Positions 651 through 20,648 of a stretch of 64,000 bases of DNA are shown piece by piece (the first letter of the stretch is position 1; every line of letters begins with the position of its first letter). The DNA lies in contig CAMDMA010000003.1 in the NCBI GenBank assembly GCA_945902075.1, forward strand, positions 5,022 through 69,021, given 5' to 3'. The position numbers were made by a program, and so were the translations under genes. Source of the DNA: Candidatus Kuenenia stuttgartensis. Lineage in GTDB: Bacteria > Planctomycetota > Phycisphaerae > Phycisphaerales > SM1A02. The notes beneath the pieces were generated by a model. That model did no database searches. It was not told where the DNA came from and saw only the letters and a program-made list of their open reading frames with translations.

Positions 651-666
651 ACGGTGTTGACCGGAA

Positions 667-711
667 ATTCGGGACACGGAGATTCGGGACACGGAAATTC
701 GGGACAGGCAA
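667..711 (+). repeat. 3 x 15-bp tandem repeat (ATTCGGGACACGGAG / ATTCGGGACACGGAA / ATTCGGGACAGGCAA) ending in motif copy a
   Basis: Read directly from the sequence. The units are iterations of the 5' half of the 20-nt intergenic motif. Confidence 0.9.
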
Positions 712-715
712 GTAT
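696..715 (+). repeat. 20-nt intergenic motif, copy a
   Basis: AATTCGGGACAGGCAAGTAT. It lies between the convergent PEP-CTERM gene and the Y1-transposase gene. Confidence 0.85.
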
Positions 716-919
716 TTTCACCACAGTTCCCGCTTGGGCACAACACATCGACGCGTTGTCAACGACGGAGAGCATCAGTTCCTTCGCAATTGAGCTTTGG
801 TCACACGTTGCGGTCCGAATGGAACGTCCAAAACGCGAAACAGCATCGCGGCCTGATCGCTCGCGAAGCATCGAGGGCGACGGTTGTTCAGTAGCCTATC
901 GAGGTCAACCCGCAAGGGT

Positions 920-2143
920 CTAAGCTGCAACGTGCGAGAGTATTCCCCGCCATAGCCATCGCCTTCCGCGTCGACAGGCTTCTCGTCTCATGGATTCTTC
1001 CGAGCCGTAGCAGGATCCCCGTGATGACGGGAAATTTTTTGCTGTTGATATGGAGGGCACCGTGACGCGTCGCAGTTGTGCCTCAAGCGACCGAACGCGA
1101 ATAGGGTTTGGCCGCTGATCTACTCCAAGATTGTTGAGAATTCCGTCAAAGAGAACTCGAAGCGGGTCGGGCTCCCAACGGGGAATCCAGCCAGGCTTGT
1201 CGGGCCTTTGCCGTCGACCGTTTCTGTCGAGTAAGGCTAAGTAGGACGCGAGCGACGGAATCTCGCAGCCAGTTGCGAGGCCGGCGCTCACCTTTCGCTC
1301 AGTGGTCCCGCGTGGAGTTTGGACCTGTTGAAACTCGGTCAGTGGGGATATGCGACAGGGAAAGGCGGGCTCCCATGCAAATCTCGAGATCTTCCGTGCC
1401 AATTCTTCGGGGCCGCGATCCGTGGACTGCAGCATTTTTTCCACCAAGTTGTAGAGCCGACGCCACTGCCGTGATGCCGACGTCCATCGACTAGAGGAGA
1501 TTGAGGAAGCCACGCAAGCATGCACCTCGTTCAGTTCGACATACTGGGCGACTTGCAGAAGGCCTTGCATGTCGAGAACTTTAGGTGATTTGAACCGACC
1601 CTCCCAAAAGTGTCCCGTCACGTGTTCTTCTCGATTCCATGCGCGCGCACATGGTTCTTTGAGAAGGCGGTGAAATAGCCCAAGTGTGGAAAGCTCTCGT
1701 CGCGCACGACTGAGACGCGGCCGATCAAGCAGCATGCTTTCAATCTCGGTTTCTGACGGTTCCGCATCGCGAGGAACGCCGTGTTTTTTTCGCCAACGCT
1801 GGTTTGGAAGCAGAGCGGTCCTGCGCATCGCAACTTCACGATCAGTCCAACGAGCGACAATCTCAGGCCGAGTAGTGAGCAGTAAGTGGATGTGATTTCG
1901 CATGATCGCAAATGAGACAACATCGATAGCCATGAATTCCGAAAGAAACGCGAGGCGTGAGACAATCCACGCCCGCCGCTTCGGATCGTCGAGTAAGGAC
2001 GTCCGTCGGACACAGCGTGAAATGCAGTGGTAGGTGCCGGGGCTGTCGGCATCCACGATGTCGCATCGTCGTGTAGTCACACGCTGAACATAATCCCGGC
2101 GGCGAGCACTTCGCACCGTCAGACGAATCTCCCGCCATATCAT
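920..2143 (-). CDS. IS200/IS605-superfamily Y1 (HUH) transposase-like protein, RAYT-like, with a long C-terminal extension
   Basis: 407-aa ORF. It has GTYHCISRCVRR, the HUH motif in RNHIHLLL, GHFWEGRFKS, and the catalytic-Tyr region QYVELNEVHA (compare YIHxNPV). This layout is typical of COG1943/REP-associated tyrosine transposases. Only the first ~220 aa resemble that fold. Confidence 0.6.
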   Translation of the reverse strand: MIWREIRLTVRSARRRDYVQRVTTRRCDIVDADSPGTYHCISRCVRRTSLLDDPKRRAWIVSRLAFLSEFMAIDVVSFAIMRNHIHLLLTTRPEIVARWTDREVAMRRTALLPNQRWRKKHGVPRDAEPSETEIESMLLDRPRLSRARRELSTLGLFHRLLKEPCARAWNREEHVTGHFWEGRFKSPKVLDMQGLLQVAQYVELNEVHACVASSISSSRWTSASRQWRRLYNLVEKMLQSTDRGPEELARKISRFAWEPAFPCRISPLTEFQQVQTPRGTTERKVSAGLATGCEIPSLASYLALLDRNGRRQRPDKPGWIPRWEPDPLRVLFDGILNNLGVDQRPNPIRVRSLEAQLRRVTVPSISTAKNFPSSRGSCYGSEESMRREACRRGRRWLWRGILSHVAA

Positions 2144-2207
2144 TCGAAATTGCTCATCTCAGTCGCGCGCCGCAATCAAAAATCAGATTTCGGAAAATTA
2201 AGGGGAA

Positions 2208-2227
2208 AATCAAGGACAGGCAAGCAT
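2208..2227 (+). repeat. 20-nt intergenic motif, copy b
   Basis: AATCAAGGACAGGCAAGCAT. It is preceded by AATCAAA, AATCAGA and AAATTAAGG half-site-like iterations and sits 33 bp upstream of the ATG at 2260. Confidence 0.85.
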
Positions 2228-2259
2228 CACTTGATTACCGCTACCCTCTGAGCCGATCT

Positions 2260-3741
2260 ATGCCCCCTCGAGAAACTCCTGCTTCCCGCATCGAACGGCT
2301 CCTTGCGGCGGGGGATCTCCATGGCGCGCTTCAGGCGGCCAATGAGTTGCTCGCACAATCGCCAAACAGCTTTCTCGGCCGCTTCGGACGGGCGCGAGCC
2401 AACTTGCGGCTTGGCGACGATCTCGAGGGAGTACGGGATCTCGACATCGCTGCGTCACTTGCGCCAAACGACGACCACCTTCGCTTCGTTCGCGCGAGAA
2501 TCGACTTTCGCAACGGTAAGACAGATGAGGCGATCGAGGTACTGAGTTCAGTTGTGCGAAGGCGCGGACCGCACGCCCTCGAAGCGTCATTCGCATTACT
2601 TGATGCCTATTTTTACGCGAATCGCGCAGAATCGCTAGCTGCGATGGTTGAAGCGGGTGGGCTCTGGGACAAAGACCCGCGCACCGCATTGCATGTTGCG
2701 CGCGTCCGTGCCATGAAAGATCGTGACGCGGGTATCGATGCACTGTTGTCGGTCTATCGCAGTGCACTTCCGGTCGCTGTGCGCCGGTTTGCGGGATTCG
2801 AAGCAGCCGGGTTGCTCGACAAGGCAGCCCGGTATCGCGAGGCATTTGATTTGATCTCAAATCTTCACGCGACGACGAGTGGTCCGATTGAGATTGAATC
2901 TTGGACGGCGCCACTTGCGGCGCAGGAAAGGGCGATCGAGAAGATCGCTGATAAGGTCAATGTCGGTTTGAAGCCACGCGGTGACTGTCAGCACGGGGTG
3001 GCCTTTGTTGTCGCACTTCCGCGTTCAGGCACAACACTGCTTGAGCACATGCTCGATCGGCATCCACAAATCGGCGGTATTGGCGAGTTTCGTGGACTGA
3101 ACACGATACAACACGCGCTCTCGTCCGCCGATGCATGGCCGTTTCGAGGAAACGCGGTTCCAAACTCCATCATTGACAGGCTTCGAAGTGGCTACATCTC
3201 CTCCGCGCGTCAGATCTGTAAGGACGGTGCCTCGTGGACTTTTGATAAGAGTTTGATGGCATGGCGGATGCTCCCGGAAATCTCCGTCTGTTTTCCCAGT
3301 GCGGTCTGTCTCGCAATCGACCGCGATCCACGGGACAACGCGACGAGCATCTTTCTCTCACATCTCAATCCCGCGACCCATCGATGGGTCGGCAGTTTTT
3401 CGGCAATCCGAGAAATCGTGTCGTGGCAGCGCAGGATTGTGCCTCGGACACTTGAGATCCTCGGCATTTCGCATGAGTCAATCATGTACGAAGACCTGAT
3501 TGAAGACCCCGCGAGGCATGCCACGCGTTGTCTTGCGCGTATGGGACTTCCTATGGACTCGCGCGTGCTATCGCCAGAGTCGTCGGAGAAGACGGCTGCC
3601 ACTCTCTCGCATGCACAGGTTCGACAGCCGATCAATCGGTCGTCGATCGGCCGGTGGAAGAACTATGCGTGGGCCTTCGATGGATCCTGGGACGAGCTCA
3701 CATCCGCGCATGAGGCAAGACTAGCCCTCAGTCGGGAGTGA
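2260..3741 (+). CDS. TPR-repeat / sulfotransferase-family protein
   Basis: 493 aa. The N-terminal half has TPR-like helical repeats. The C-terminal half carries the PAPS-binding 5'-PSB-like motif ALPRSGTTLLEHMLDRHPQI. Confidence 0.7.
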   Translation: MPPRETPASRIERLLAAGDLHGALQAANELLAQSPNSFLGRFGRARANLRLGDDLEGVRDLDIAASLAPNDDHLRFVRARIDFRNGKTDEAIEVLSSVVRRRGPHALEASFALLDAYFYANRAESLAAMVEAGGLWDKDPRTALHVARVRAMKDRDAGIDALLSVYRSALPVAVRRFAGFEAAGLLDKAARYREAFDLISNLHATTSGPIEIESWTAPLAAQERAIEKIADKVNVGLKPRGDCQHGVAFVVALPRSGTTLLEHMLDRHPQIGGIGEFRGLNTIQHALSSADAWPFRGNAVPNSIIDRLRSGYISSARQICKDGASWTFDKSLMAWRMLPEISVCFPSAVCLAIDRDPRDNATSIFLSHLNPATHRWVGSFSAIREIVSWQRRIVPRTLEILGISHESIMYEDLIEDPARHATRCLARMGLPMDSRVLSPESSEKTAATLSHAQVRQPINRSSIGRWKNYAWAFDGSWDELTSAHEARLALSRE

Positions 3742-3751
3742 GTTTGCAGTC

Positions 3752-3771
3752 AATCCGGGACAGGCATGCTT
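3752..3771 (+). repeat. 20-nt intergenic motif, copy c
   Basis: AATCCGGGACAGGCATGCTT, upstream of the ABC importer operon. Confidence 0.85.
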
Positions 3772-3871
3772 TGCGAACCGTCGTCCCGCCACGATTCACC
3801 TTGATCACGAACTCCAACCCAAAGCGGGTTTGGAACCCGCCGCATGGAAATGGGTTAACCTCCCTAGCCAA

Positions 3872-5986
3872 ATGCTGCATTCGCTGAGCCGACTCTTTCT
3901 AGGCATCATTCTGATCGTGCTCGCGGCAACTGCGCTCGTGTTAACCGATCGATCGGGGCTCGTGCGTTCCGCGCAACCAGGCGCCAGTGGCCCATCGCCT
4001 CGACGCATTGCTGTCATCCAAGTCTCATCTATCGACGCGTTAACAGAGGGACGGGTTAGCGCGATCGATCACCTAGCGAAGGCGGGGTACACAGCAGAAC
4101 TCGGATCCACGATCGACCTCTTTAATGCCGAGGGCGACATGGGCACACTGAATCAGATTTCGGCACAGGTCGCGGGTTCGGCCACGCCTTACGACCTTGT
4201 CATCACGCTTTCAACTCCTGCGACGCAGACTTTTCTCCGTGCCAACAAGCGCGCTATCCCACACGTGTTCGGTCTCGTCGCGTTCCCTCCTGCGATCGGT
4301 ATCCCCTTTGGTCCCTGGGTAGAGGGCTCTTCGCGACCGCAGCAGGTCGCGGGCTTCGGCACCATGCAACCGGTGCAACTCCTCTTCGAGTCGATGCTGG
4401 ATTGTGACCCGACGATCAAACGCGTAGGCGCCGTTTGGAATCCGGCTGAGCCTAATGCTGAAGCCTCGGTGAAGCTCGGCCGGGAAGTGTGCGCAAAACT
4501 CGGACTCGAACTTGTTGATGCGAATGGTGGCAATGTCAATGATGTCGTCTCTGCAGCAGATGTCGTGCTTTCCCGCGGAATCGACTGCTATTGGATTCTC
4601 GCGGATACCAACGTCATCGCGGCGGCGAAGCCTCTGATTGAGCGCTGTCGCAAGGCAGGCGTGCCTGTTGTGACAAACTTTCCACCGATGGCTGAGTTGG
4701 GTGCCGCGATCAACTTCGGCGCCGATTACAGCGCCATGGGAACTGCAACAGGCGCAACTGCCGAACTCGTTCTCGCAGGAATGCTCCCCCGCGAAATCCC
4801 ATGCGAGAATTTCGTCCCGGTGGCACTTCGCCTCAACACGGAGGGATTCGGTTCCAATTGGGCGCGTCCCTCCGCGCTGATCGCAAAAGCTGAGCGCGTC
4901 TATGGCGCTGACGGCAGGATTGCCGAGCAAGTCGTTGCAAAGGCGCTCATGCCGCCGAGTGTTGCTCAACTCATCGCGGCGCGGCAATCTTCATCGCCGC
5001 GTGGAACTCCTCGTGTCCCGGAGATCGCCGTGCTCACCTACAACCGCACACCGAACTTCGAAGAGGCCTATGCAGGCTTCCTTACCGAACTCACCCGACT
5101 CGGGTACGAGGATGGGCGAAATATCCGCATACGTCTCCGCGACGCGCAACTTGATGCTGGCACTCTCAACACAATCGTGGCTGCTATCGCGAGCGAGCGG
5201 CCTGATGTCGTGGTGCCGTTCACCACACCGGCGCTACAAGCGACCGCACGTCGCATCAAAGACATTCCTATCGTCTTCTCGCTCGTCGCATCGGCATCGG
5301 CAGCTGGTGCCGGTAAATCAAATACGGATCACGAACCGAACATCACGGGCGTGCAGACAACGCTCGATGGACCCGGCATGATTCGGGTCGTGCATGCGGT
5401 GCTGCCTCATTTGCGTCGTGCGGGCACGGTCTTCGCGCCAAGTGAGGCAAACAGTGTTTTCTTCCGCGATCGCTTTACCGGTTTACTGAAGGATGTCGGT
5501 ATCGAATTGGTCGCGGCGGGCGCGGATCGAGTGACGGAGCTTCCAGAGGCGGCTGACAGTCTTGGAGCGAAGGGTGTCACAGCGATTCTGCAGATCGCAG
5601 ACAACGCATCCGCAACGGGCTTCCCGACCATCGTCCGAAGCGCGGATCGCGCCAATCTTCCAGTTTTTGCCTTCACTCCAGGTGCGATGAAGTCGGGGGC
5701 CACTCTCGCGGTTGCGCTTGATTATGCCGACCTCGGCGCGCTCAGTGCCGGATTACTCGATCGTGTGCTCCGCGGTGAGTCAACAGCGACGATTCCGTTC
5801 ATCGATCCGAAGGACTCAATCCTCTGGGTGAATCCTGCGCGCATGAAGCGTTTTGGACTCACGATGCCAGAGGCGATGCTGAAAACTGCACGAATTACCG
5901 ATGCGGATGGAAACTGGTCGCCGCCCACGCCTGACGATGAGGTACGTCCGGCAGCGCGAATGGCTGAAAAAGAGGCGATGCCATGA
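3872..5986 (+). CDS. ABC transporter substrate-binding protein with a tandemly duplicated ABC_sub_bind (PF04392-like) domain
   Basis: The ORF opens at TTG 3830, but ATG 3872 directly precedes a TM/signal helix (LFLGIILIVLAATALVL). Two homologous halves are visible: IAVIQ..GY..DLVITLSTPATQ..IPHVFGLVA and IAVLT..GY..DVVVPFTTPALQ..IPIVFSLVA. Confidence 0.7.
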   Translation: MLHSLSRLFLGIILIVLAATALVLTDRSGLVRSAQPGASGPSPRRIAVIQVSSIDALTEGRVSAIDHLAKAGYTAELGSTIDLFNAEGDMGTLNQISAQVAGSATPYDLVITLSTPATQTFLRANKRAIPHVFGLVAFPPAIGIPFGPWVEGSSRPQQVAGFGTMQPVQLLFESMLDCDPTIKRVGAVWNPAEPNAEASVKLGREVCAKLGLELVDANGGNVNDVVSAADVVLSRGIDCYWILADTNVIAAAKPLIERCRKAGVPVVTNFPPMAELGAAINFGADYSAMGTATGATAELVLAGMLPREIPCENFVPVALRLNTEGFGSNWARPSALIAKAERVYGADGRIAEQVVAKALMPPSVAQLIAARQSSSPRGTPRVPEIAVLTYNRTPNFEEAYAGFLTELTRLGYEDGRNIRIRLRDAQLDAGTLNTIVAAIASERPDVVVPFTTPALQATARRIKDIPIVFSLVASASAAGAGKSNTDHEPNITGVQTTLDGPGMIRVVHAVLPHLRRAGTVFAPSEANSVFFRDRFTGLLKDVGIELVAAGADRVTELPEAADSLGAKGVTAILQIADNASATGFPTIVRSADRANLPVFAFTPGAMKSGATLAVALDYADLGALSAGLLDRVLRGESTATIPFIDPKDSILWVNPARMKRFGLTMPEAMLKTARITDADGNWSPPTPDDEVRPAARMAEKEAMP

Positions 5987-6067
5987 TTCGTGATTTCATG
6001 ATTCATGATGTCATGATTCGTGCGGTCCTCATTCATGCGGTCCTCATTCATGCGGTCCTCATTCATG
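5986..6067 (+). repeat. 15-bp periodic array, about 5.5 units, in the spacer between the SBP and STAS genes
   Basis: Units are ATTCGTGATTTCATG, ATTCATGATGTCATG, ATTCGTGCGGTCCTC, ATTCATGCGGTCCTC, ATTCATGCGGTCCTC and ATTCATG. The array starts at the last base of the SBP stop codon. Confidence 0.9.
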
Positions 6068-6119
6068 TTGGAACGAACGCCACAGGTCATCTCAGCTCCT
6101 ACGTCCCGAGTGCCGCGCT

Positions 6120-8224: not shown

Positions 8225-9023
8225 ATCAGTTCGGAAAACATTCAACCCTGGCACCGCGAATGAGGTCCGCGCGCTAGCGGGACTTGACCTCAACCTTGCA
8301 CCAGGCTCGTTCACGGTCGTGATCGGGACGAACGGTTCGGGTAAGAGCACTCTTCAAGGAGCGATCTCCGGGGTCTTCGCGATCGATGCAGGGCGTATTG
8401 AAGTCGATGGGATCGATGTCACGTCGTGGCCCGAGTTCCGTCGATCGCACCTCATTGGGCGGGTGTTCCAAGACCCCTTCGCGGGAACGGCACCCGAACT
8501 CACCGTCGCGGAGAATCTTGCGCTCGCCTCCAAGCGTGGGCACTGGCGTACGCTTGCCCCGCTGCTTCGGGGTGCGAGGCGTGGCGAATGGCGCGATTTG
8601 TTGGCGCAGATTGGTCTGGGTCTTGAGAACCGACTCGATGACCCTATTGGACTCTTGTCGGGCGGGCAGCGTCAATCAATCACGCTGCTAATGGCGACAC
8701 TCACGAATCCAAAGATTCTGATGCTCGACGAGCACACCGCCGCGCTGGATCCGAGGAGTGCCGAGTTGGTGATCGGACTCACAACCCGTCTGGTCGCACG
8801 ATCGAGTTCAACAACATTGATGGTGACTCACTCGATGCAGCAGGCAGCGTCGCTCGGTGATCGGTTGATCGCCATGCACCGGGGGCGGATTTACCTCGAC
8901 GTTTCTGGCAGCGAGAAGCGCAAACTGACGGAGAACGAACTATTTGGCATGTTCAGCCATATGCGTCGAGATGACCGATTTGACGAGGCTGCCTGCGAGC
9001 TTGTGCGGAGCCAGTATCTGTAG
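8211..9023 (+). CDS. ABC transporter ATP-binding protein
   Basis: Walker A GTNGSGKST, signature LSGGQRQ and Walker B LMLDEHTAALD. ATG 8211 (MLRLESVRKTF) overlaps the permease stop. The longer ORF from 8160 is probably a 5' over-extension. Confidence 0.85.
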   Translation: MLRLESVRKTFNPGTANEVRALAGLDLNLAPGSFTVVIGTNGSGKSTLQGAISGVFAIDAGRIEVDGIDVTSWPEFRRSHLIGRVFQDPFAGTAPELTVAENLALASKRGHWRTLAPLLRGARRGEWRDLLAQIGLGLENRLDDPIGLLSGGQRQSITLLMATLTNPKILMLDEHTAALDPRSAELVIGLTTRLVARSSSTTLMVTHSMQQAASLGDRLIAMHRGRIYLDVSGSEKRKLTENELFGMFSHMRRDDRFDEAACELVRSQYL

Positions 9024-9032
9024 GCAGTAGGC

Positions 9033-9052
9033 AATCCGGGACAGGCATGCAT
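9033..9052 (+). repeat. 20-nt intergenic motif, copy d
   Basis: AATCCGGGACAGGCATGCAT. The 19-mer CAATCCGGGACAGGCATGC (9032-9050) is identical to 3751-3769. Confidence 0.85.
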
Positions 9053-9333
9053 TTCAGCTTGAGCTGGATGCTTAGTACGCGACCACCACTGCCACCACCT
9101 CAGCCAATACCAAGTCTGCCGTCACATCTCAGTGGAACTCGCTGGGGCGTCGCCCCTCGCTCACTGTTTGGACATTCTCGCAATAGCACTGCGGTTCCGT
9201 CGGTCTGCGCGATAGTTGGGATCACACGCCGACGAGCCCGCGCATCGACCCAGTTATCTCGAGGGAGGCGGTTTGGTTAGACCGCCTCTGTTTGCGGTGA
9301 GCGTGTCGCCGACGAACCTAGAGAGGCTGACGA

Positions 9334-9353
9334 ATGCATGCCTGTCCTTGATT
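9334..9353 (-). repeat. 20-nt intergenic motif, copy e
   Basis: The minus strand reads AATCAAGGACAGGCATGCAT. Confidence 0.85.
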
Positions 9354-9541
9354 GGTCTCTTGATTGGTCTTTCGATTGGTCGGAAGTCGGGGAGGTGGGA
9401 AGCGCGCAGCCCCCGGATCCAAAGATCCCGGCAAATTGAATCGCACTGCCGCGGGTAGCGCGGGTAATCTCTCTCCTTCGTCCAGAACATCTTTGCGATT
9501 GGCACCGCAGAAACGCCACCGCCGACCTCCCAGGACCCGTC

Positions 9542-10702
9542 ATGAAGATCCTCCATGTGACTGAATCGCTCAGGCTTGTCGACGGGGGAGTGGCACGCGC
9601 GCTTCATGACCTCATCTCCGTCATGGATCAGCGTGGGCACCGATCGATGCTCCTCACGCACGGTACTCCTGATCTTCCCGCACACTGGGCGGCCGATTGC
9701 ATCGACAGGGTTCATCAGTTCGACGGCTTCCCCATCGCGCGCAAAGGGCCACTTCTCCGCGATAGAGCGCGTCTTCTCGCCCTTATGCAGCGGGTTGACA
9801 TGGTGCATATCCATCAGCCGTGGCACCCGTTCCTCGTCCAAGTCGCGACCCTTTGTCGAAAGGCGGGAACCCCGTACTGCGTCAGTCTCCACGGCTGCTT
9901 AGACGATTGGCCGATGTCGCAGAAGGCTTTGAAAAAACGAGTTAGTATCGCGCTCGTCGGTCGTCGAATGCTTGAGTCTGCGGCTTTCGTTCACTGCACA
10001 GCCACCGACGAAGTTCGACAGTCGATCAAGTGGTTCCCGCGCGGTCGGACTGTGGTGGTTCCGTGCACCATGGACCTGCGCGTCTACCGACAACTGCCCG
10101 AACCAGAGCTCGCCCGCGAAAAGTTTAACTTGAATCGTCCGGGCGACATGCTTCTTTACATCAGCCGCATTCATCCGAAGAAGGGTCTGATTCACCTGAT
10201 TCGCGCACTTCCGAGGATTCGTGAGCAATACCCAGCGTGGCTTTGCGTCGCGGGGCCACGGGAAGACGCTGGGTACGCGAGTCTTGTTGACGACGAAATT
10301 CGCCGACTTGGTCTCCAAGAGTCAGTGAAGTTCGTGGGGAATGTCAGCGATCCGACGCTCAAGGCCTCTCTCTACAGCGCAGCGAGAGCATCAGTTTTGC
10401 CGACGAGCCAAGAGAATTTCGGATTCGTTTTATTCGAGTCGCTCGCATGCGGCACGCCGCTTGTAACCACGGATTTGGTTGATACCTGGCGAGAGTTGAA
10501 GGAGCATGGCGGCGCCTTCATCGCGTCCCAAAACCCTGAGACGGTCGCGAGGGAAGTACTTCGCGTGCTCAGTCTCTCGGAGGCAGAGCGGTTTGCACTC
10601 AGTGAAAGGGCACGAAAATGGGTGCTGGGCTACTTAGACGAGCGCGCCATCGGCAAGCAGATGGAGCAGGCTTATGAAGCGGCGTGTGACCAGCGCATCT
10701 AA
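9542..10702 (+). CDS. Glycosyltransferase, GT4 (GT-B fold) family
   Basis: 386 aa. It starts MKILHVTESL..GGVARAL and carries the C-terminal EX7E-type motif region ENFGFVLFESLACGTPLVTTD. Confidence 0.8.
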   Translation: MKILHVTESLRLVDGGVARALHDLISVMDQRGHRSMLLTHGTPDLPAHWAADCIDRVHQFDGFPIARKGPLLRDRARLLALMQRVDMVHIHQPWHPFLVQVATLCRKAGTPYCVSLHGCLDDWPMSQKALKKRVSIALVGRRMLESAAFVHCTATDEVRQSIKWFPRGRTVVVPCTMDLRVYRQLPEPELAREKFNLNRPGDMLLYISRIHPKKGLIHLIRALPRIREQYPAWLCVAGPREDAGYASLVDDEIRRLGLQESVKFVGNVSDPTLKASLYSAARASVLPTSQENFGFVLFESLACGTPLVTTDLVDTWRELKEHGGAFIASQNPETVAREVLRVLSLSEAERFALSERARKWVLGYLDERAIGKQMEQAYEAACDQRI

Positions 10703-10741
10703 TCTCAGTTATCTGATCTGGTACGCATCTGATCTGGGACT

Positions 10742-10761
10742 GATCTGGGACAGGCATGCAT
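10742..10761 (+). repeat. 20-nt intergenic motif, copy f
   Basis: GATCTGGGACAGGCATGCAT. Confidence 0.85.
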
Positions 10762-11009
10762 CTCGTCTCTCCGCGGGGTACGGCCAGCATCACCTCTTGC
10801 GGGCCTGAATAGGCAGCTAGTTCCAAGCGCATTCACGGGGTCAACTCTCCACGAACGGTGAGAAGACATTTTGCTAGTCAAACTGCGGTTCTGTCGGCCT
10901 GCGCAACATCAGACGCCCGACGCCGGACATCACCCGTTCAAAGTGCTGCAAATGTCCACGCTGAGCGTGTCGCCGACAATCGGGGATGCATGAGAGAAAG
11001 CATGAGAGA

Positions 11010-11029
11010 AAGCATGCCTGTCCTCGATT
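11010..11029 (-). repeat. 20-nt intergenic motif, copy g
   Basis: The minus strand reads AATCGAGGACAGGCATGCTT. Confidence 0.85.
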
Positions 11030-11059
11030 GACTTTCGATTGGCTCTCGATTGGCGCGCC

Positions 11060-11776
11060 TCAATCGAGGAATCGCACCGCGCCCGTCTCCACGTCATACA
11101 TCGCCCCGACGACTTGCAGGTTGCCGTCAGCAACAGCCTTCGTCAGGATGTCACTACGCTTGACGAGCTCAGCTGCCTGCCAACGAACATTTGCGATCTC
11201 GGCGTCCGTGGTGCTTACGCGGCCATCCGCGCCCTTCGGTGCATTGGCGAGTGCGGGTCGGATTGCCGCCACAAACGACGACATCCTGCCGGGCAACTCT
11301 TTGCCTTCAACAGTCGCATTGACTGCGCCACACTTCGTATGTCCAAGCACGACGATCGTGTGCACCCCAAGGGCGGCGACGCCGTATTCAAAGGTACCGA
11401 TGCCGACATCATTCTGAAAGTTGCCCGCGATACGGACCACAAACAGGGATCCCACTCCCTGATCAAAGATGAGCTCGGGTGGAGTGCGTGAGTCTGCACA
11501 TGTCAAAATCCCGACCGATGGAGTTTGGCCATCCCGACCCGTCTTCGCGATCCGCTCGTGCAGCCAGTCGTGTGTTCGGACATCACCCGACAAGTAGCGA
11601 TCATTGCCATCTTTGAGTGCCTGCATCGCCATCTTTGGCTCGATACCGGTTGAAAGCGCACGGCCACTTTCGGGCGAGTTGGTCGAAACGCAGGCGGTGA
11701 AACTGAGCGAAAGCGCAAGAGTAACGGCAGTGCGGAAGATTGAAATCATTGTGGAACTAGAATAACGGTTTTTCAC
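11060..11776 (-). CDS. Beta-class carbonic anhydrase, exported (lipoprotein-like signal peptide)
   Basis: 238 aa. It has an N-terminal signal with SLSFTAC, Zn ligand motifs CADSRTPPE and GHTKCGAV, and FVVRIAGN. Confidence 0.8.
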   Translation of the reverse strand: MKNRYSSSTMISIFRTAVTLALSLSFTACVSTNSPESGRALSTGIEPKMAMQALKDGNDRYLSGDVRTHDWLHERIAKTGRDGQTPSVGILTCADSRTPPELIFDQGVGSLFVVRIAGNFQNDVGIGTFEYGVAALGVHTIVVLGHTKCGAVNATVEGKELPGRMSSFVAAIRPALANAPKGADGRVSTTDAEIANVRWQAAELVKRSDILTKAVADGNLQVVGAMYDVETGAVRFLD

Positions 11777-12732: not shown

Positions 12733-12759
12733 ACTCCAGCAATTTCTTGCTGACCTCAA

Positions 12760-14103: not shown

Positions 14104-14122
14104 AGTGGCACGAGTATCGATT

Positions 14123-14965
14123 TCAATGCGTGATGTTCTGTTGATCCATTGGAAGTGATGCTCCACGTATTGAAGCAGGAACAAGCACCACGGCGAAACG
14201 ATACACGAGCGAATGACCGATCCACGCAACGCGAAGTCCGGCACGCGCCGCAAGCGCATCGATCTCTGCACGAGTAAACCCGGCCTCAACGCTTACACGG
14301 GCATCATGTCGAGTGGATATCGATGCAAACATGGTTGCTACTCGCACCGCGATGTTTTGCGCCGCGCCGCGCTTCAAATCATTCCAGATCACCGCACGCC
14401 TCGCCGCGCGCGACATCTCAGTCAACGCTGCAACCACACGCTCGTCCGAAAAATGATGAAGCGTGAGCGATGCGTGGACGAAGTCAAACGCCTGCACACC
14501 GAATTGTGCGGTGAGAGTGAAGATGTCACCAGTTTCGAAGCGTGCTCGGCTCGACGTGCCTTGAAAGGAGACCTGAGCGCGCGCGATCATCTCCGGGCGT
14601 CGGTCAATGCCGATGACATCAAGAGAAGGCTTCGCATCAGCAAGTGCGCGCGCGATATCGCCGCTCCCAGTACCGACATCCGCGAGCGACTGCTTCATAT
14701 GCGGATCGGCGGGTGGGCTCCGATTTGCAGTCTGGCTCGCGGCATGAACCGCTCGGATTGAGAGCGCGGTTCCGCCGAATGTGCGGTTGATCGCGCGGAG
14801 ATAACCGAGTTCACGGTCGAGCGCTTCGCCGCCGCAGCTCGCTTGATCGAGGTACTCGTCAGAGAGCAGTCGTTGGGTCCAGGGCTGTGGGCGTCGCCGA
14901 TAGGGCTCAAAAACAATCGAGGACGCGGCGCGCGCGTCCTCGGTGTGGTTTTGATCTGGATCCAT
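14123..14965 (-). CDS. Class I SAM-dependent methyltransferase
   Basis: 280 aa with motif I DVGTGSGDIARALA, followed by an acidic post-I residue and a Rossmann-like pattern. Confidence 0.7.
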   Translation of the reverse strand: MDPDQNHTEDARAASSIVFEPYRRRPQPWTQRLLSDEYLDQASCGGEALDRELGYLRAINRTFGGTALSIRAVHAASQTANRSPPADPHMKQSLADVGTGSGDIARALADAKPSLDVIGIDRRPEMIARAQVSFQGTSSRARFETGDIFTLTAQFGVQAFDFVHASLTLHHFSDERVVAALTEMSRAARRAVIWNDLKRGAAQNIAVRVATMFASISTRHDARVSVEAGFTRAEIDALAARAGLRVAWIGHSLVYRFAVVLVPASIRGASLPMDQQNITH

Positions 14966-14973
14966 CGAGCGTC

Positions 14974-15249
14974 TCAGTGCGTCTGAGAGCGCTCTTGGGT
15001 GTTTTCGGGGGTTCGGATCGGCTGCTCAGGCGGAAGTGCCCGGCGAGATTGCCCGTCGTCCTTTTGGACTTCGTCACCCACATCCTTCAGTCCCTTTTTG
15101 AACTCGCGGATGCCAACTCCCATCGACTTGCCAACTTCAGGGAGGCGTCGACCGAACAACAGGAGGGCAATGATGAGGATGACCGCCCACTCCATCATGC
15201 CGAGATTGCCGATGAAAGCGATGAGCGAGGTTGAGGTGAGCGAGGTCAT
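14974..15249 (-). CDS. tatA: Twin-arginine translocase subunit TatA/E
   Basis: A TM helix plus amphipathic helix: WAVILIIALLLFGRRLPEVGKSMGVGIREFKKGLKD. The true start may be the internal MMEW (about 15198). Confidence 0.7.
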   Translation of the reverse strand: MTSLTSTSLIAFIGNLGMMEWAVILIIALLLFGRRLPEVGKSMGVGIREFKKGLKDVGDEVQKDDGQSRRALPPEQPIRTPENTQERSQTH

Positions 15250-15390
15250 GCAGTTTGCTCCTTGAAAGCCGAGTATACCCAGCCCGCGCCGCTTTCAAGC
15301 GGCCCATGCTGCCAAGCACCAGATTTGCTCAGTGATGCCCGCGACGTTCTCTGCTGCAAAGTCCGGGATCTTTCCGATATCGCTCCCACT

Positions 15391-16698
15391 ATGCAGGATC
15401 GCATGAGCTATCGGTTGAGCTTTCGCGGCGCCCTTCACGGCGCCCTTCGCACCGCCTCGGTCGTCACATTGCTTGTCGCACTGGCAGGATGCCGGACGCA
15501 GCAGGAGGTGCCCGAGGATCCGAATCGTCCGACCGACGGTCCGGCCCTTGTCCGCCTCGGGCCAGATGATCCAAAGCCGGACGTTGGTGCCGCGTTCGCC
15601 CGAAAGAGTTTTTACCTTGATCGGTCGACCAACGAGAGCATCGGTTGGTTCCAGAAGCCATCCGCACAGACCTGGTTTCCGTTCCTCAATCAAGGCACCA
15701 AAGAGCAGGTCTGCACATACGAGCAGGCTGCGGCGAGTGTCGTTGCGTTCCGCGAATTACTTCAGAACGCACCGAGTGCTGAAGAATTCACCAGCAAGTT
15801 CAACGAGATGTTCGAGGTTTGGCAGTCGGTGGGCTACAACCAAAAGCGCGACGTTCGCTTTACCGGCTATTTCTCACCTACTTTCAAGGCCGATCGCTCG
15901 CCAAGTGAGCGATTCAAATATCCACTCTACCGCCGCCCGGACAACCTGCTGAGTGATCCAAAGAGCGGTCAACCGCTGGGCCGCCGTATGCCGGATGGGT
16001 CTACCGCGCCGTGGCCGTCACGTGTCGAGATTGAGTCAAGTGGCATGTTTAAAGGCACGGAACTGGTTTGGCTTGAGAGCCCGCTTGATGCCTACATCGT
16101 GCAGGTCAACGGCAGCGCAAAGCTCATCATGCCCGACGAGAGCGTGATGTATGTCGGCTATGCAGGGAAGACCGACGGCGAGTATGTCGGACTTGGACAG
16201 TCTTTCATGGACGCCGGCATTCTGAAAAAGAGCGAGCTTTCACTCGCTGCGATTCGCCGCTACGGCAAGGCGCACCCAGACGAGGTTCAGACCCTTATCA
16301 ATCGAAACAATTCGTTCGTATTCTTCAAGGAGTACGCGCCGGGTGCGTGGCCAGCCGGCTCGATTGGGACGCGCGTGAATGAGGATGCCTCCATCGCGAC
16401 CGACAAGACGATTTTCCCTCGCGGCGGGCTCGTGATGGTCGACACATTGGCAAACACCTACAAGGGAGGGATGGTCGAGTACAAAAACTTCATGCTCGAT
16501 CAAGATACTGGTGGCGCGATTCGTGCTGCTGGACGCGCCGACCTTTACATGGGTGCGGGTGCACCGGCTGAATTGCTCGCAGGTGGGCAGTACGCGACCG
16601 GGAAGATGTACTACTTCTTCCTCAAGCCCGAGTTTGTCGCGCAGTATCCCTTGCCATCTGCACAGAAGCGCGCGGCCTCCACCAACAGTGGTGGCTGA
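15391..16698 (+). CDS. mltA: Membrane-bound lytic murein transglycosylase A (MltA domain + 3D domain)
   Basis: FTGYFSPTFKA..YPLYRRP matches the MltA pattern, and the C-terminal DTGGAIRAAGRADLYMGAG matches the 3D domain. ATG 15391 was chosen, but the ORF opens at 15262. Confidence 0.7.
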   Translation: MQDRMSYRLSFRGALHGALRTASVVTLLVALAGCRTQQEVPEDPNRPTDGPALVRLGPDDPKPDVGAAFARKSFYLDRSTNESIGWFQKPSAQTWFPFLNQGTKEQVCTYEQAAASVVAFRELLQNAPSAEEFTSKFNEMFEVWQSVGYNQKRDVRFTGYFSPTFKADRSPSERFKYPLYRRPDNLLSDPKSGQPLGRRMPDGSTAPWPSRVEIESSGMFKGTELVWLESPLDAYIVQVNGSAKLIMPDESVMYVGYAGKTDGEYVGLGQSFMDAGILKKSELSLAAIRRYGKAHPDEVQTLINRNNSFVFFKEYAPGAWPAGSIGTRVNEDASIATDKTIFPRGGLVMVDTLANTYKGGMVEYKNFMLDQDTGGAIRAAGRADLYMGAGAPAELLAGGQYATGKMYYFFLKPEFVAQYPLPSAQKRAASTNSGG

Positions 16699-16754
16699 GC
16701 ATCGACGCAGAGTCACGGCGAATACGATCAAACTGTGTATTTACGCGGCGTGCG

Positions 16755-17468
16755 TCATGGACGCGCGCCGCGTTCTTTTTCTTCGGCGTCTGCTGCATCG
16801 GCGTCCCGTTTCCAGCCAAGGCCGCGCTCTCGGCGGAGTTCGTCAGACGTTTGCCATTCACGCTCGCGACCAAGTTCTGGCCATGCCTCGCTGCCAAATG
16901 TGCCATCTTCTCTGACCCACATACGAGCGAATCCGGCTGGGAAAGCACGTGAACGCGTGTACGTCGCGTCTCGTGATGAGGCACACTCAGCAACGAAGCG
17001 TGATTCGTCAAGCACACACCACGCTTCACCCATGCCGCACGCGAGAAGTAGTGCAGGAAAAAGTAAGCACGCGAGTCGGCGGACTGGTCGTGCAGTAAGC
17101 GTCCACGCTGGGAGCGGTGCTGTGCTGCGTCCGCATTCGCTGCAGGTCGGCCGCGATTCATGTGGGTAGCCACAGAACGGGCAACGATTCTCGCGAGCGC
17201 GGCGGTCGGCGGGTAGATGGAGCCAGAAGATCTCCGCGAAGTCGGCGAACGGTACAAGCCACCAGAGAAAGATGGACGCAGCGATGGTCGCAAGCACGCA
17301 CGCAGCGATGGTGCCAAGGTGTGCGCCGAAACCGCCGACCAGCGCTCGTGCCATGCAGTAACTCGTGAATAAAAAAATCGTCGAGAGCGCGAGGAGCGCA
17401 CCGAAGGCAATCATGTTCGCGCCCGGAGGCGCGCGCAGGTTTTCGATCTCGTGATGTGCTTCCGACAT
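16755..17468 (-). CDS. Hypothetical membrane protein with a CxxC..CxxC zinc-ribbon
   Basis: 237 aa with two N-terminal TM helices and CPFCGYPHESRPTCSECG. Its codon usage is gene-like, unlike the overlapping Arg/Ser-rich frame 16622..17410. Confidence 0.45.
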   Translation of the reverse strand: MSEAHHEIENLRAPPGANMIAFGALLALSTIFLFTSYCMARALVGGFGAHLGTIAACVLATIAASIFLWWLVPFADFAEIFWLHLPADRRARENRCPFCGYPHESRPTCSECGRSTAPLPAWTLTARPVRRLACLLFPALLLACGMGEAWCVLDESRFVAECASSRDATYTRSRAFPAGFARMWVREDGTFGSEAWPELGREREWQTSDELRRERGLGWKRDADAADAEEKERGARP

Positions 17469-17507
17469 ACGTCCGACGATAGCCGCGGAACACCTACACT
17501 GCGCGCT

Positions 17508-18500
17508 ATGGTTGCGAACGCAGTAGATTCAACTCGGGCTCCGCTAGCAATTGATCTTGTTGATGTGACGAAGATGTATGCAGGCCGCGTGCATGCACTA
17601 CAAGGGGTCTCGATGCGCGTCCCGCGCGGTGAAATCTTCGGACTTCTCGGGCCGAATGGCGCGGGAAAATCGACGTTGGTCAAAATCATGACGACGATTG
17701 TCCGGGCGACGACCGCGAGTGGAACGATCCTCGGCGCTCCCGTGGGCAATCGTCCGACGCTCGCGCGCGTGGGCTATCTCCCAGAGCATCATCGATTTCC
17801 CCAGTATCTCACGGGTCGTCAGTGTGTTGAGTTTTTCGGCGCAATGAGCCTTATGCGACGTACAGACCGAAAGCGACGCGCGAGCGAAATGCTTGAAGTT
17901 GTCGGAATGGCAGCGTGGGGTGATCGGCGCGTCGGTACCTATTCGAAGGGCATGCAGCAGCGAACTGGCCTCGCCGCGGCGCTTGTGAACGACCCCGAAC
18001 TCGTCATCCTTGATGAGCCGACAGATGGCGTTGATCCGGTCGGGCGCCACGAGATTCGCGATGTACTACTGCGTATGCGCGAGGAAGGACGCACGGTCTT
18101 CCTCAACAGTCATCTGCTCGGTGAAGTCGAGTTGATCTGTGATCGCGTGGCCATCATGCTGAAGGGCCGTGTCGAACGCCAGGGTTGTCTCGCTGAACTC
18201 ACGCAAGACAGTCGGCGCTGGCGCGTTTCTATCGAGGGTGCGATGCCCTCATGGGTCGCAGGAATTGGTGCCACGGGTGAGGACCGCGGTCGCGCGCATG
18301 TCGAGTTCAAGGCGGACGATGTTGACGAGTTGCAGCGGTTAATCGACCGACTACGCGCGGAAAATGCGCGCATCGTCGGCGTGACCGAACAACGCGAATC
18401 GCTCGAAGAACTGTTCATGCGCCTTGTTCGCGATGTTGACGGCCGTACAAGCGCGGTCGGTGCATCCAACGTCAACGCATCGATGAGGATTCCGCGATGA
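17508..18500 (+). CDS. ABC transporter ATP-binding protein (ABC-2/DrrA-like exporter type)
   Basis: Walker A GPNGAGKST, signature YSKGMQQR and Walker B ILDEPTDGVD. ATG 17508 was chosen because the 5' part of the ORF from 17451 overlaps the divergent gene. Confidence 0.85.
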   Translation: MVANAVDSTRAPLAIDLVDVTKMYAGRVHALQGVSMRVPRGEIFGLLGPNGAGKSTLVKIMTTIVRATTASGTILGAPVGNRPTLARVGYLPEHHRFPQYLTGRQCVEFFGAMSLMRRTDRKRRASEMLEVVGMAAWGDRRVGTYSKGMQQRTGLAAALVNDPELVILDEPTDGVDPVGRHEIRDVLLRMREEGRTVFLNSHLLGEVELICDRVAIMLKGRVERQGCLAELTQDSRRWRVSIEGAMPSWVAGIGATGEDRGRAHVEFKADDVDELQRLIDRLRAENARIVGVTEQRESLEELFMRLVRDVDGRTSAVGASNVNASMRIPR

Positions 18501-19657
18501 ATCAGGCCCGAAACTCGGCGCGAGTGAGCGACCAACTTCATTCGCTCTATCGAACCCACCTCACGCTCTCCGATTACGCGGTGCAGACTTGGGGGCTGTT
18601 CGTCTCAGCGTATCGTGAGCTGAATGCGCGAAAATTGTTTTGGGTCGCACTCGCACTGAATGCGCTTGTCATTGGCGCGGTTGCGGCCGTTGGTATCGAT
18701 GAGACGGGGATCTCGATTCTCGGCTACGACCTCGATATTCCGGGCGTAACGAGCAAGATGTTTCCCGACGGGCAGTTATACAAAACGATTATCTCTGCAC
18801 TCGGTGTTGGATTTTGGCTCTCTTGGCTTTCGACGATTCTTGCGCTGCTATCAACTGCATCGATGTTCCCAGATCTCGCGACCGGCGGTGTTGACACGAT
18901 GCTGTCGAAGCCCATTGGACGCACGCGACTCTTTCTCACCAAGTTCGCAACCGGTCTGCTCTTCACGGCGTTACAGGTGGCTGTCTTTGCGGTGCTGGCG
19001 TATCTCGTACTCGGCATTCGTGGGGGCGTGTGGGAGGTTGGGATCTTCGTCGTGGTGCCGCTGATGGTGGTGTTTTTCAGTTATCTGTTTGCGCTGCAGG
19101 CGGTTGTTGGAATGGTGACGAAGTCGCCGATCGCATCTGTGATCGTGACACTTCTCTTTTGGATTTTCATCTTCCTTGTGCATGCAGGCGAGCAGTTCAC
19201 CCTGCTTGGGAGCACCGCGTCGCGGCTTGAGATCGAAGGAATTGAGGCGAAAGCAGCGTCACTCCAGACGGATGAAGCAAGATCGGGTCTTGCGACTCCG
19301 CTCGAGTCGGCGAAGCGAGCCAATGAAAACTGGCAACTCGCGCACGGCATTTTTTATTCCGCGAAGACAGTTCTTCCAAAGACCACCGAGACTGCAGGAT
19401 TGGTCACGCGTGCCCTTGCGGTGGCGGCAAACATCGGCTCGGAATCGGATGGCGAGGGTGGTGGCGGAGAGGACGAAAACACTCGTCGGCAGCGAGGTTT
19501 CTTTCGATCTCAGTTTGTGAGTGAACGCAAGTTGCGAGCAGCCATGAACGAGGAGATGTCCTCACGGCCGGTATGGTGGGTCGTAGGCACGAGCTTTGGC
19601 TTTGAGTGCGTAGTGCTCGCTGCGGGCATCTGGTACTTCAGGCGGCGCGATTTCTGA
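18497..19657 (+). CDS. ABC-2-type transporter permease
   Basis: 386 aa, multi-TM. Its start overlaps the ATPase stop (ATGA). Confidence 0.6.
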   Translation: MNQARNSARVSDQLHSLYRTHLTLSDYAVQTWGLFVSAYRELNARKLFWVALALNALVIGAVAAVGIDETGISILGYDLDIPGVTSKMFPDGQLYKTIISALGVGFWLSWLSTILALLSTASMFPDLATGGVDTMLSKPIGRTRLFLTKFATGLLFTALQVAVFAVLAYLVLGIRGGVWEVGIFVVVPLMVVFFSYLFALQAVVGMVTKSPIASVIVTLLFWIFIFLVHAGEQFTLLGSTASRLEIEGIEAKAASLQTDEARSGLATPLESAKRANENWQLAHGIFYSAKTVLPKTTETAGLVTRALAVAANIGSESDGEGGGGEDENTRRQRGFFRSQFVSERKLRAAMNEEMSSRPVWWVVGTSFGFECVVLAAGIWYFRRRDF

Positions 19658-19705
19658 CCGATGCCGCGACGACTCATGATGCTCGAGATTGATCGCGTGA
19701 CGCTT

Positions 19706-20521
19706 TTAAGGCCGGCCAAGCTCCGCACCACGATCTCGCGCAGCGCGCAACGTTTCCAACATCAGCGCGTCGAGCCCGCCAACGCGGGAACAGTCGTCGT
19801 CGAGACGAGCGACTCCCGCAGCGGTAGTCCCACCCTTACTCGTGACCTTTGCTCTCAACACTTCGGGTTCCTCGCGGGTTTCCTCGAGAAGCGTCGCCGC
19901 ACCGATTAGCGTCTCTCGTGCGAGGGCGCGCGCTTTGTCGGTTGGAAGGCCGATTTGCTCCGCAGCGTACGACCAGGCTTCTAGGAAGCGAAAGACGAAG
20001 GCGGGGCCTGAGCCGCTCACGGCGGTAACGGCATCGAAAAGCGCCTCGGGTACACGGATCGTGCGCCCCACGGAGGCGAAGAGTTGTTCGGCGCGAAGGA
20101 AGTCTGCTTCCGCGACATCGGCGTCGGAAGCGATGGCGGTGATTCCGCGGCGCACGGCAGCGGGGGTATTCGGCATCACGCGGACAACTCGGGCGTGACC
20201 GCCTAATGCATCGCGGATGGCATTGCTGCGGACGCCGGCCATGACTGAGACGATCAGGGGTCCATGAGCGGGGATGGCACCGAGCGCGGCAGCAGCTTCA
20301 GCGAAGCTCTGCGGCTTCACGGCGAGAACGGCGATTTCGCTCCCATGAACGCCTTGGGCGGAAACAACGCGAAGGCCCATTTCACGCGCCTCGTCGAGCC
20401 GAACCTGATCCGGCTCGAGGACGCCAATTTCACTCGGAGCGGCGATGCCAGACTCGATCGCACCACGGACGATCGCATGTCCAACGTTTCCGAAACCGAC
20501 TACGGCGAGGCGGGGGTGCAT
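19706..20521 (-). CDS. proC: Pyrroline-5-carboxylate reductase
   Basis: LAVVGFGNVGHAI (NADP-binding), SVMAGV, RVMPNTPA and VTSKGGTTAAG. Confidence 0.85.
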   Translation of the reverse strand: MHPRLAVVGFGNVGHAIVRGAIESGIAAPSEIGVLEPDQVRLDEAREMGLRVVSAQGVHGSEIAVLAVKPQSFAEAAAALGAIPAHGPLIVSVMAGVRSNAIRDALGGHARVVRVMPNTPAAVRRGITAIASDADVAEADFLRAEQLFASVGRTIRVPEALFDAVTAVSGSGPAFVFRFLEAWSYAAEQIGLPTDKARALARETLIGAATLLEETREEPEVLRAKVTSKGGTTAAGVARLDDDCSRVGGLDALMLETLRAARDRGAELGRP

Positions 20522-20545
20522 GCCGGGAGGGTACCGGCGGTTGCA

Positions 20546-20565
20546 AATCTAGGACAGGCATGCAT
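20546..20565 (+). repeat. 20-nt intergenic motif, copy h
   Basis: AATCTAGGACAGGCATGCAT, 25 bp from the proC start codon in the proC/accA divergent spacer. Confidence 0.85.
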
Positions 20566-20628
20566 CGGACATGTATCGGGCATGACTCGTCTCGTGGTTG
20601 GTAACGGTTGGTAAGAATCGGGGACAAG

Positions 20629-20648
20629 AATCTGGGACAGGCAAGCAT
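20629..20648 (+). repeat. 20-nt intergenic motif, copy i
   Basis: AATCTGGGACAGGCAAGCAT, preceded by the half copy AATCGGGGACAAG and 27 bp upstream of the accA ATG. Confidence 0.85.

Follow-up and report, generated by a model that had tools for sequence, protein, structure and literature searches.

A short intergenic repeat family associated with a RAYT/TIRYT-like Y1 gene in Phycisphaerae

Introduction

What is a 20-nt motif that recurs in the spacers of one bacterial region, and does it belong to any gene nearby? The question is raised by a 64,000-nucleotide stretch of contig CAMDMA010000003.1 (assembly GCA_945902075.1, positions 5,022 to 69,021), which is listed under Candidatus Kuenenia stuttgartensis with a GTDB lineage in the Phycisphaerales and which we call the window throughout. 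A preliminary description of this DNA, made from the sequence alone, reported nine copies of the motif and did not recognise it as any described repeat family. Here, we report that the copies form a genuine repeat family, in a soil planctomycete, clustered around a gene for a Y1 HUH endonuclease resembling the RAYT and TIRYT proteins, that similar repeats flank this gene in related species, and that the motif is probably the cognate repeat of a TIRtron-type system.

Results

A non-random repeat family confined to a few spacers

The nine-copy motif is a genuine, non-random repeat family. Its invariant 9-mer, GGACAGGCA, occurs nine times on the two strands of the window, compared with 0.45 +/- 0.70 occurrences in 100 dinucleotide-preserving shuffles, none of which attained nine (0/100), so that the count stands well above a composition-matched expectation. 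At three or fewer mismatches, the complete 20-mer has 10 matches in the window versus 0.15 expected. The tenth match, at 29214 (2 mismatches), is degenerate, lies within coding sequence and lacks the family flanks; no family copy was found in coding sequence of the window. All nine copies were recovered at the coordinates and on the strands originally reported, and the claim that they are strictly intergenic holds for each of them, as judged from Pfam-supported open reading frames (ORFs) and, independently, from the genes called on ten syntenic strain contigs. The sole gene call that overlaps any copy is a 44-aa ORF call without support.

The clustering of the copies around the Y1 gene is real. 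As the preliminary description had stated, they are restricted to the first 21 kb, where nine copies are distributed across 6 spacers (~3.0 kb of spacer DNA), while the other 43 kb of the window contain none in 14 spacers (~4.4 kb); the corresponding probability, calculated by spacer, is (0.41)^6 = 0.0045. The 8.9 kb past the window end hold one chance match only, inside a gene, and two extra copies, an inverted pair accompanied by partial repeat units (stutter, see below), are located 1.8-1.9 kb ahead of the window start. All 11 copies thus fall between -2 and +18.5 kb from the Y1 gene. The strand of positive GC skew holds 8 of the 11, a bias that is not significant (p = 0.11).

The repeat accompanies a Y1 gene across species

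The gene located between copies 1 and 2 is absent from the preliminary description's account of the motif neighbourhood, and the unrecognised standing given there to the repeat calls for qualification. The missed gene codes for a RAYT/TIRYT-like Y1 protein, and such repeats flank it in all relatives compared. These comprise seven loci whose Y1 proteins share 35-50% identity with that of the window and whose neighbouring genes are unrelated. In 7/7, the Y1 gene is framed by inverted repeat copies, upstream in (+) and downstream in (-) orientation. The six relatives at 39-50% identity (including L052/53, L054, L055, L056 and L058) have the common GGACAGGCA core in these flanks, with one to three (+) copies ~50-180 nt upstream, one or two (-) copies 210-290 nt past the stop codon, and additional copies within ~5-10 kb of the gene. 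Their cross-species consensus, CCAATCNNGGACAGGCA, is followed by TGCAT in the source organism, and each species has its own flanks around the shared core. Across species, no sequence other than the motif is conserved from the Y1 stop to the downstream repeat. The most distant relative, L057 (35% identity), has the same layout, with two upstream (+) and two downstream (-) copies, built on a different core, GTGGACACACCC. Thus, the repeat co-varies with the protein.

The position of the Y1 gene differs by species; in L056, for example, it resides between the ABC2 and P5CR genes, a spacer that measures 166 nt in L102. Within the strains of the source organism, an identical Y1 protein is encoded on at least 23 contigs; contigs of 200-520 kb with this locus include ERZ27280276:k141_125063 and ERZ18671513 scaffold_5. 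Searches with tblastn detected one Y1 copy in the window and did not find the gene twice in any locus fetched. The Y1 gene stands between two paralogous genes with TPR and Sulfotransfer_3 domains, one at 2260-3741 (+) of the window and the other at 12417-13883 of L001, just before the window start. We considered that copy 2 might belong to this sulfotransferase duplication and rejected the idea, because the paralogs share no alignable upstream sequence.

Scans of public contigs with the 20-mer, in genome and metagenome collections that do not include the source organism, returned 41 and 42 loci, respectively. Nearly all are single chance-level matches in unrelated taxa, and true family matches are few (L044, L045, L063, L073, L083 and L095). 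Several lake Planctomycetota contigs carry tandem 44-nt units with GGGGACAGGCATGCAT (L045 259-535, L063 2632-2903, L095 2124-2220 and L073 16-68); the L063 array is placed between genes for a CitMHS transporter and a FAD-binding oxidase, with no Y1 gene within 8.5 kb. In L058, arrays of at least seven units of 22-26 nt, each with CAATCGAGGACAGGCAC, coincide with runs of N (1851-2129 and 8329-8398), and these repeats disrupt short-read assemblies. Copies of CCCAATCCGGGACAGGCAT with stutter are found at the end (1-300) of L044, a contig from a metagenome-assembled genome (MAG) that is labelled Gammaproteobacteria (65.6% GC) and may represent mis-binned planctomycete DNA or horizontal transfer.

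The Y1 protein resembles TIRYTs

The Y1 protein matches Pfam Y1_Tnp (4.6e-6) and scores 33 bits against the NCBIfam model REP_Tyr_transpos (NF047646), under its cutoff of 80. Its ~560 homologs come from Phycisphaerae and other Planctomycetota MAGs and bear the JGI name 'REP element-mobilizing transposase RayT'. Based on these homologs, translation probably begins at GTG 2080 rather than at ATG 2143, which gives a protein of 386 aa with an N-terminus of MTTRRCDIVD as in its relatives; residues 1-22 of the structural model have a predicted local distance difference test score (pLDDT) below 50. Overall, the AlphaFold (AF2) model reaches a pLDDT of 80.5 and a predicted template modelling score (pTM) of 0.82. 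Its best match in the PDB is 4er8_A, E. coli TnpA-REP (a RAYT) bound to a REP hairpin (E 1.6e-4), followed by the IS608 and ISDra2 transposases.

Among 20 aligned homologs there is little or no variation in the HUH motif (NHIHLL; N83, H84 and H86), W180 (in FWEGRF) and Y201 (in Y[IV]ELN), and a C-terminal block, RGSCYGS...EA.RRG, is likewise conserved. The conserved catalytic residues and the predicted fold are those of a Y1 HUH enzyme, which suggests that the protein acts as one. Its sequence contains NHIH, WE and YVELNE; position Y+4 relative to the catalytic tyrosine is N, and Y+5 is E in close members of the family and P in distant ones.

Comparison by phmmer with published sequences (Additional file 5 of Di Nocera 2013, PMC3733652) revealed similarity to the TIRYTs hch1378 (3e-12), aba2776 (8e-11), rba2408 (7e-10) and sml1152 (1e-9); for the RAYTs eco b228 and rba11751 it was not significant. 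Alignment with TIRYTs extends over the WEGRFKS and Y[IV]ELN blocks. By sequence, then, the protein falls with the TIRYTs, having their signatures and being nearer to them than to RAYTs. It also contains an insertion of ~75 aa between the HUH strand and the W motif that does not occur in the aligned TIRYT sequences. No helix-turn-helix (HTH) domain was matched in Pfam, and a fold search with the C-terminal half of the model gave no significant match in the PDB. Residues 328-382 have a weak similarity to the RPA32 C-terminal winged helix (E 0.13), a similarity not borne out when the C-terminal model was searched by fold.

Arrangement of the copies and variation among strains

The copies occur singly and as two inverted pairs (Table 1), and the mixed gene contexts noted in the preliminary description are confirmed, some copies lying upstream of start codons and others between convergent genes. 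Copy 1 lies 205 nt 3' of the Y1 stop and has '-' orientation relative to the Y1 gene. Pairs A and B are non-coding, with terminal inverted repeats of 25-30 nt, and their interiors are diverged paralogs (alignment score 31.5 versus -7 +/- 6.4 for shuffles); comparison of these interiors with the flanks of the Y1 gene revealed no homology. In pair A, two 12-nt stutter units lie outside the element (9354-9379). In pair B, 5' stutters lie outside both arms, and a 12-nt 3' stutter (GCATGAGAGAAA on the + strand) lies inside, at 10986-11009. A GT4 glycosyltransferase gene (9542-10702) is bracketed by the two pairs in the same orientation, a layout that resembles a composite element.

Table 1. Coordinates of the Y1 gene, the repeat copies of the window and in-gene matches to the 9-mer in L054
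Feature	Coordinates	Strand	Description
RAYT/TIRYT-like Y1 HUH endonuclease gene	920..2143	-	407-aa ORF between copies 1 and 2
Copy 1	663..715	+	two 15-nt stutter units (GGArATTCGGGACAC), then AATTCGGGACAGGCAAGTAT
Copy 2	2172..2227	+	preceded by degenerate AATC-containing stutter; divergent spacer between Y1 gene and TPR-sulfotransferase gene
Copy 3	3752..3771	+	single, without stutter; between sulfotransferase gene and ABC substrate-binding protein gene; invariant across strains
Pair A	9033..9353	.	~320-bp element with inverted copies 4 (9033-9052 +) and 5 (9334-9353 -) as ends
Pair B	10713..11056	.	~290-bp element with copies 6 (10742-10761 +) and 7 (11010-11029 -) as ends
Copy 8	20546..20565	+	divergent P5CR/accA spacer
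Copy 9	20613..20648	+	carries a single stutter unit (AAGAATCGGGGACA); accA start codon 26 nt downstream
In-gene 9-mer matches, L054	11897, 15630, 17483, 19821, 19891		genes: UbiA, LptD, Glyco_tran_28_C, a hypothetical

Partial tandem repeats of the motif's 5' half, one to three in number, precede six of the nine copies (696, 2208, 9334-, 10742, 11010- and 20629). The preliminary description had ascribed such iterations to most copies, which is correct as a feature of these six and does not extend to those at 3752, 9033 and 20546. Copy 4 is instead preceded by GTAGGCA GTAGGCA (9019-9037), a duplication that repeats the AGGCA of the motif's 3' half.

A comparison of the motif-bearing spacers of the window with those of the ten strain contigs (11 sequences) showed that nearly all differences are changes in how many short units adjoin the core. 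The 15-nt unit of copy 1 is present two or three times, as is the 12-nt unit of copy 5. The spacer of copy 2 measures 111, 123 or 131 nt, with all differences inside the stutter, and on the 3' side of copy 7 the 12-nt unit is repeated two to five times, resulting in core-to-core spacings of 267, 279, 291 or 303 nt for pair B.

Sister species lack the motif in orthologous spacers

The search for empty sites, which the preliminary description had proposed, found no gain or loss of a whole copy among the 11 strain sequences; orthologous spacers of sister species are free of the motif. In these species, whose AccA proteins are 85-87% identical to that of the window, 12.9-18.8 kb of syntenic DNA contain no copy, and this stretch includes the spacer between P5CR and accA that carries copies 8 and 9 in the window. 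The orthologous P5CR-accA spacers of L101, L102 and L056 measure 68-105 nt and lack the motif; they are too diverged for base-level alignment of empty sites, and the usable evidence is that they differ in length and have no motif copy. Taken together with the different loci occupied by the Y1 gene, this absence indicates that the motif and the gene behave as added DNA.

In L102, a sister species that lacks GGACAGGCA, the ABC2-P5CR spacer (8974-9138), in which L056 has the Y1 gene with its repeats, contains GAATCACGGACACCC and two AATCAACCCAT units, a possible relic or variant repeat. The relatives of its AccA protein likewise assign the window to the Phycisphaerae. One AccA protein, P0125, is 90% identical to that of the window and is labelled as from a 'Limnohabitans sp.' MAG; other named close relatives are from Phycisphaerae or other Planctomycetota, and the P0125 contig is probably mis-binned.

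Searches for promoters, terminators and RNA elements

The copies are not palindromic and hence not classical REPs, and the consensus CCAATCNNGGACAGGCA includes neither a GTAG nor a CGTC foot. A sigma-70-like consensus detected no promoter-like site in 500-4000 or 8900-11200, nor at any copy, and no terminator-like site (GC hairpin plus T-run) overlaps any copy. Together with the copies between convergent genes, the lack of sigma-70-like matches upholds the earlier judgement that the motif is not a simple promoter. An Rfam scan of the window identified transfer RNAs (tRNAs) only and nothing at the copies, where a tRNA scan also drew a blank.

Three further candidates were tried and rejected. 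A sigma-54 promoter was dismissed by eye, given a GG...GC spacing of 8-9 nt rather than 10. A CsrA sponge did not fit, as the motif reads ACAGGCAUG and not ACA-GGA-UG and occurs in mixed orientations. A mini-ORF on the reverse strand (MHACP...) is not kept between copies or species.

Discussion

The motif as a probable cognate repeat of the Y1 protein

We consider it likely that the motif is the cognate repeat of a TIRtron-type system in Phycisphaerae and that the Y1 enzyme recognises or processes its copies, which have spread locally. The conserved core would be the sequence recognised by the enzyme, which would nick and rejoin it on single-stranded DNA (ssDNA), probably as other Y1 enzymes do. 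Such activity would seed copies into nearby spacers as singles, tandem arrays and inverted pairs that bound 150-320 bp. The partial units beside the core would then expand and contract fast, and the stutter could stem from replication slippage or from abortive cleavage and rejoining. An iteron-like binding array, as raised in the preliminary description, is a further possible reading of these units.

Several observations weigh against this reading. The Y1 transposases and RAYTs whose structures have been studied recognise hairpins in ssDNA, and ssDNA folding of eight copies with their flanks gave z values of -1.84 to +1.23 relative to shuffles, without a common stem. The two copies that flank the Y1 gene in the window have the same orientation, unlike the inverted layout in 7/7 relatives, and motif arrays occur on other Planctomycetota contigs without a RayT-like gene within 8.5 kb. 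Whole-copy presence/absence polymorphism was not found among the 11 strain sequences, and hence no recent movement was seen. In L054, the 9-mer, mostly as GGACAGGCATGT, occurs four to five times inside annotated genes (Table 1), far above expectation; the match at 19891 encodes a conserved H-x-G-T-G-T motif and is probably a coincidence. The census of 11 copies covers ~82 kb around the Y1 gene. Finally, binding and cutting of the motif by the protein, protein-driven spread of the copies and the origin of the stutter are inferred.

Alternative explanations

The motif could instead be an operator or promoter, a site for a transcription factor or an alternative sigma factor that defines a local regulon (sulfotransferases, a glycosyltransferase, an ABC transporter and accA), of which the Y1 gene would merely be a regulated or autoregulated member. 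Four of the nine copies (2208, 3752, 20546 and 20629) do read in the sense direction towards a start codon 26-100 nt away, the upstream copies keep their ~50-180 nt from the Y1 start in all relatives, and the direct-repeat arrays resemble multi-site operators. However, other copies are placed between convergent genes (696; 10742/11010) or face the 3' end of a gene (9334). The '-' copy 210-290 nt past the Y1 stop stays with the gene regardless of the downstream neighbour, the promoter region of the housekeeping gene accA lacks the motif in three relatives, and array length differs between strains; given also the missing sigma-70-like consensus, we regard this explanation as unlikely. Somewhat less probable still is an active, selfish insertion sequence (IS) of the IS200/IS605 kind, in which the Y1 gene and its flanks would be autonomous and the short copies its offspring, similar to miniature inverted-repeat transposable elements (MITEs), with no domestication or host role. 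Such an origin would account for the Y1 HUH fold with its conserved catalytic residues, for the varying locus of the gene among species and for the MITE-like pairs A and B. It is at odds with the single gene copy in the 64 kb and its flanks and in all loci fetched, with a gene position that is fixed on at least 23 strain contigs, with the lack of subterminal hairpins and of tnpB, with the lack of conservation from the stop codon to the repeat downstream, and with a protein of ~400 aa whose insertion and conserved C-terminal module are unlike IS200 transposases.

Two other accounts appear less probable still. One is a structured nucleic-acid element that acts in the transcript, as a REP-like hairpin, a terminator, a small RNA or a protein-titrating RNA. 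The intergenic position of the copies, often soon after stop codons, and the superficial likeness of the GGA-rich arrays to CsrA-sponge RNAs would suit it, whereas the folding results (no better than shuffles in 8/8 copies tested), the Rfam scan, the lack of terminator-like sites and the mixed orientation to flanking genes make it very unlikely. The other is a slippage-prone micro- or minisatellite whose copies are alike through local duplication alone. Unit number is indeed the dominant polymorphism among strains, and relatives have tandem arrays of 22-44-nt units, but a core of 9-15 nt is kept beside the Y1 gene in six species with only 39-50% identity in their Y1 proteins, while the surrounding spacers have become unalignable, and copies stand in both orientations in separate spacers up to 18 kb apart; we give this account very little weight.

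Implications

A more far-reaching proposal is that the long Phycisphaerae Y1 enzymes are domesticated, sequence-specific DNA editors that add or remove 12-44-nt units at the non-hairpin sequence CCAATCNNGGACAGGCA, or else that AATC serves as an insertion target, with GGACAGGCA... as the end of a single-strand transposon of extremely small size. Both versions fit the strain variation in unit number, which is limited to the motif edges, as well as the local clustering and the cross-species conservation of the core; we nevertheless view them as speculative and improbable. If the editor version were true, the arrays would constitute a programmed hypervariable 'contingency' tract in spacers near cell-surface genes (sulfotransferases, glycosyltransferases and a transporter).

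With the motif taken as the repeat of a TIRtron-type system, the locus allows one to ask by what means a repeat without a hairpin could serve a Y1 HUH enzyme, and it is suited to asking whether such an enzyme drives local variation in tandem units. To our knowledge, TIRYT/TIRtron systems have been named in two studies only and never examined biochemically. The Phycisphaerae subfamily provides a clean test case, with a core of 15-17 nt kept at only ~40-50% protein identity, a co-varied core in a distant member and a strain series with changes in unit number only. Defined oligonucleotides for binding and cleavage assays and a population-genetic read-out of activity follow from the conserved core and the strain series. 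On a practical level, the arrays interrupt metagenome assemblies, as seen in the N-gaps and contig ends of L058, L044 and L045, and inflate ORF calls at gene starts.

Relation to known systems

The Y1 HUH enzyme beside the repeat sets the system apart from MITEs, which depend on a DDE transposase. Pairs A and B are MITE-like in their length of ~300 bp, their non-coding nature, their terminal inverted repeats and their homologous interiors, but only two homologous pairs were observed, most copies are solo or tandem, and no target-site duplication is visible. With IS200/IS605 elements (IS608 and ISDra2), the system has in common the catalytic fold, the HUH/Y chemistry expected from it and the absence of target-site duplications. 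It differs from them in its single-copy gene, in lacking subterminal hairpins and, in 8 species, a tnpB neighbour, in a protein three times longer, and in flanks that are not conserved besides the motif.

REPtrons, such as those of E. coli TnpA-REP (PDB 4ER8) and the Pseudomonas REPINs, likewise consist of a single-copy Y1 HUH gene flanked by cognate intergenic repeats, and the co-variation of repeat and protein, the inverted pairs and the best structural match (4er8_A) point in the same direction. The repeat of the window, however, forms no imperfect palindrome or hairpin and has no GTAG/CGTC foot, and its inverted pairs are 150-320 bp apart rather than parts of a single long hairpin. The protein has no significant sequence similarity to RAYTs, and its score against the NCBIfam RAYT model stays under the cutoff. 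The documented copies form a local cluster within the ~82 kb covered, in contrast to hundreds of dispersed REP copies.

The closest counterparts are TIRtrons, RAYT-like genes with inverted-repeat flanks that are not REPs and share GGGGWSAS, whose proteins were named TIRYT by Di Nocera et al. 2013 (PMC3733652). The same study describes the TIRtron repeat families as moderately abundant and present as singles, dimers or clusters (PMC3733652). Quentin et al. 2018 assign most TIRYTs to the TnpAY1 subclass 2.1, which they define by NH[VYF]H / W[EQ] / YIELNP and by a C-terminal HTH-like domain (Bac_DnaA_C, HTH_23 or HTH_28) (PMC6006769). TIRtrons resemble the system studied here in combining a RAYT-like Y1 gene with non-palindromic repeats at similar distances from the gene, inverted in the relatives and direct in the window, and in a repeat family of moderate size that occurs as singles, dimers and clusters. 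The signatures NH[IV]H ... WEGRF(K/H)S ... Y[IV]ELN are common to the Y1 protein and TIRYTs. At the level of the repeat, GGGGACAG, found in copies of L052, L063, L095 and L083, fits GGGGWSAS, and the fit is partial in L057 (GTGGACAC, 7/8) and in the window, where copies read NGGGACAG (5/9) or NNGGACAG (4/9), match 6-7/8 positions and have GG or GGG rather than GGGG.

There are also differences. The Y1 protein has ~400 aa, compared with a median of 238 for TIRYTs; it carries the ~75-aa insertion and a different C-terminal module (RGSCYGS...EA.RRG) with no Pfam HTH and no structural match, and in the closest members of its family Y+5 is E rather than P. The flanking copies in the window are direct, not inverted. 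Stutter arrays, their polymorphism among strains and cross-species conservation of a 15-17-nt core do not appear in the parts of PMC3733652 and PMC6006769 that were consulted. Neither the motif nor its Phycisphaerae Y1 subfamily was found in the literature searched, and the preliminary description was right in that the exact motif has not been reported there; its remark that it recognised no described family calls for qualification with regard to the kind, which was described as TIRtrons (PMC3733652; PMC6006769). Accordingly, the repeat and its gene are best filed under the TIRtron/TIRYT kind, as a Phycisphaerae variant rather than a categorically new system.

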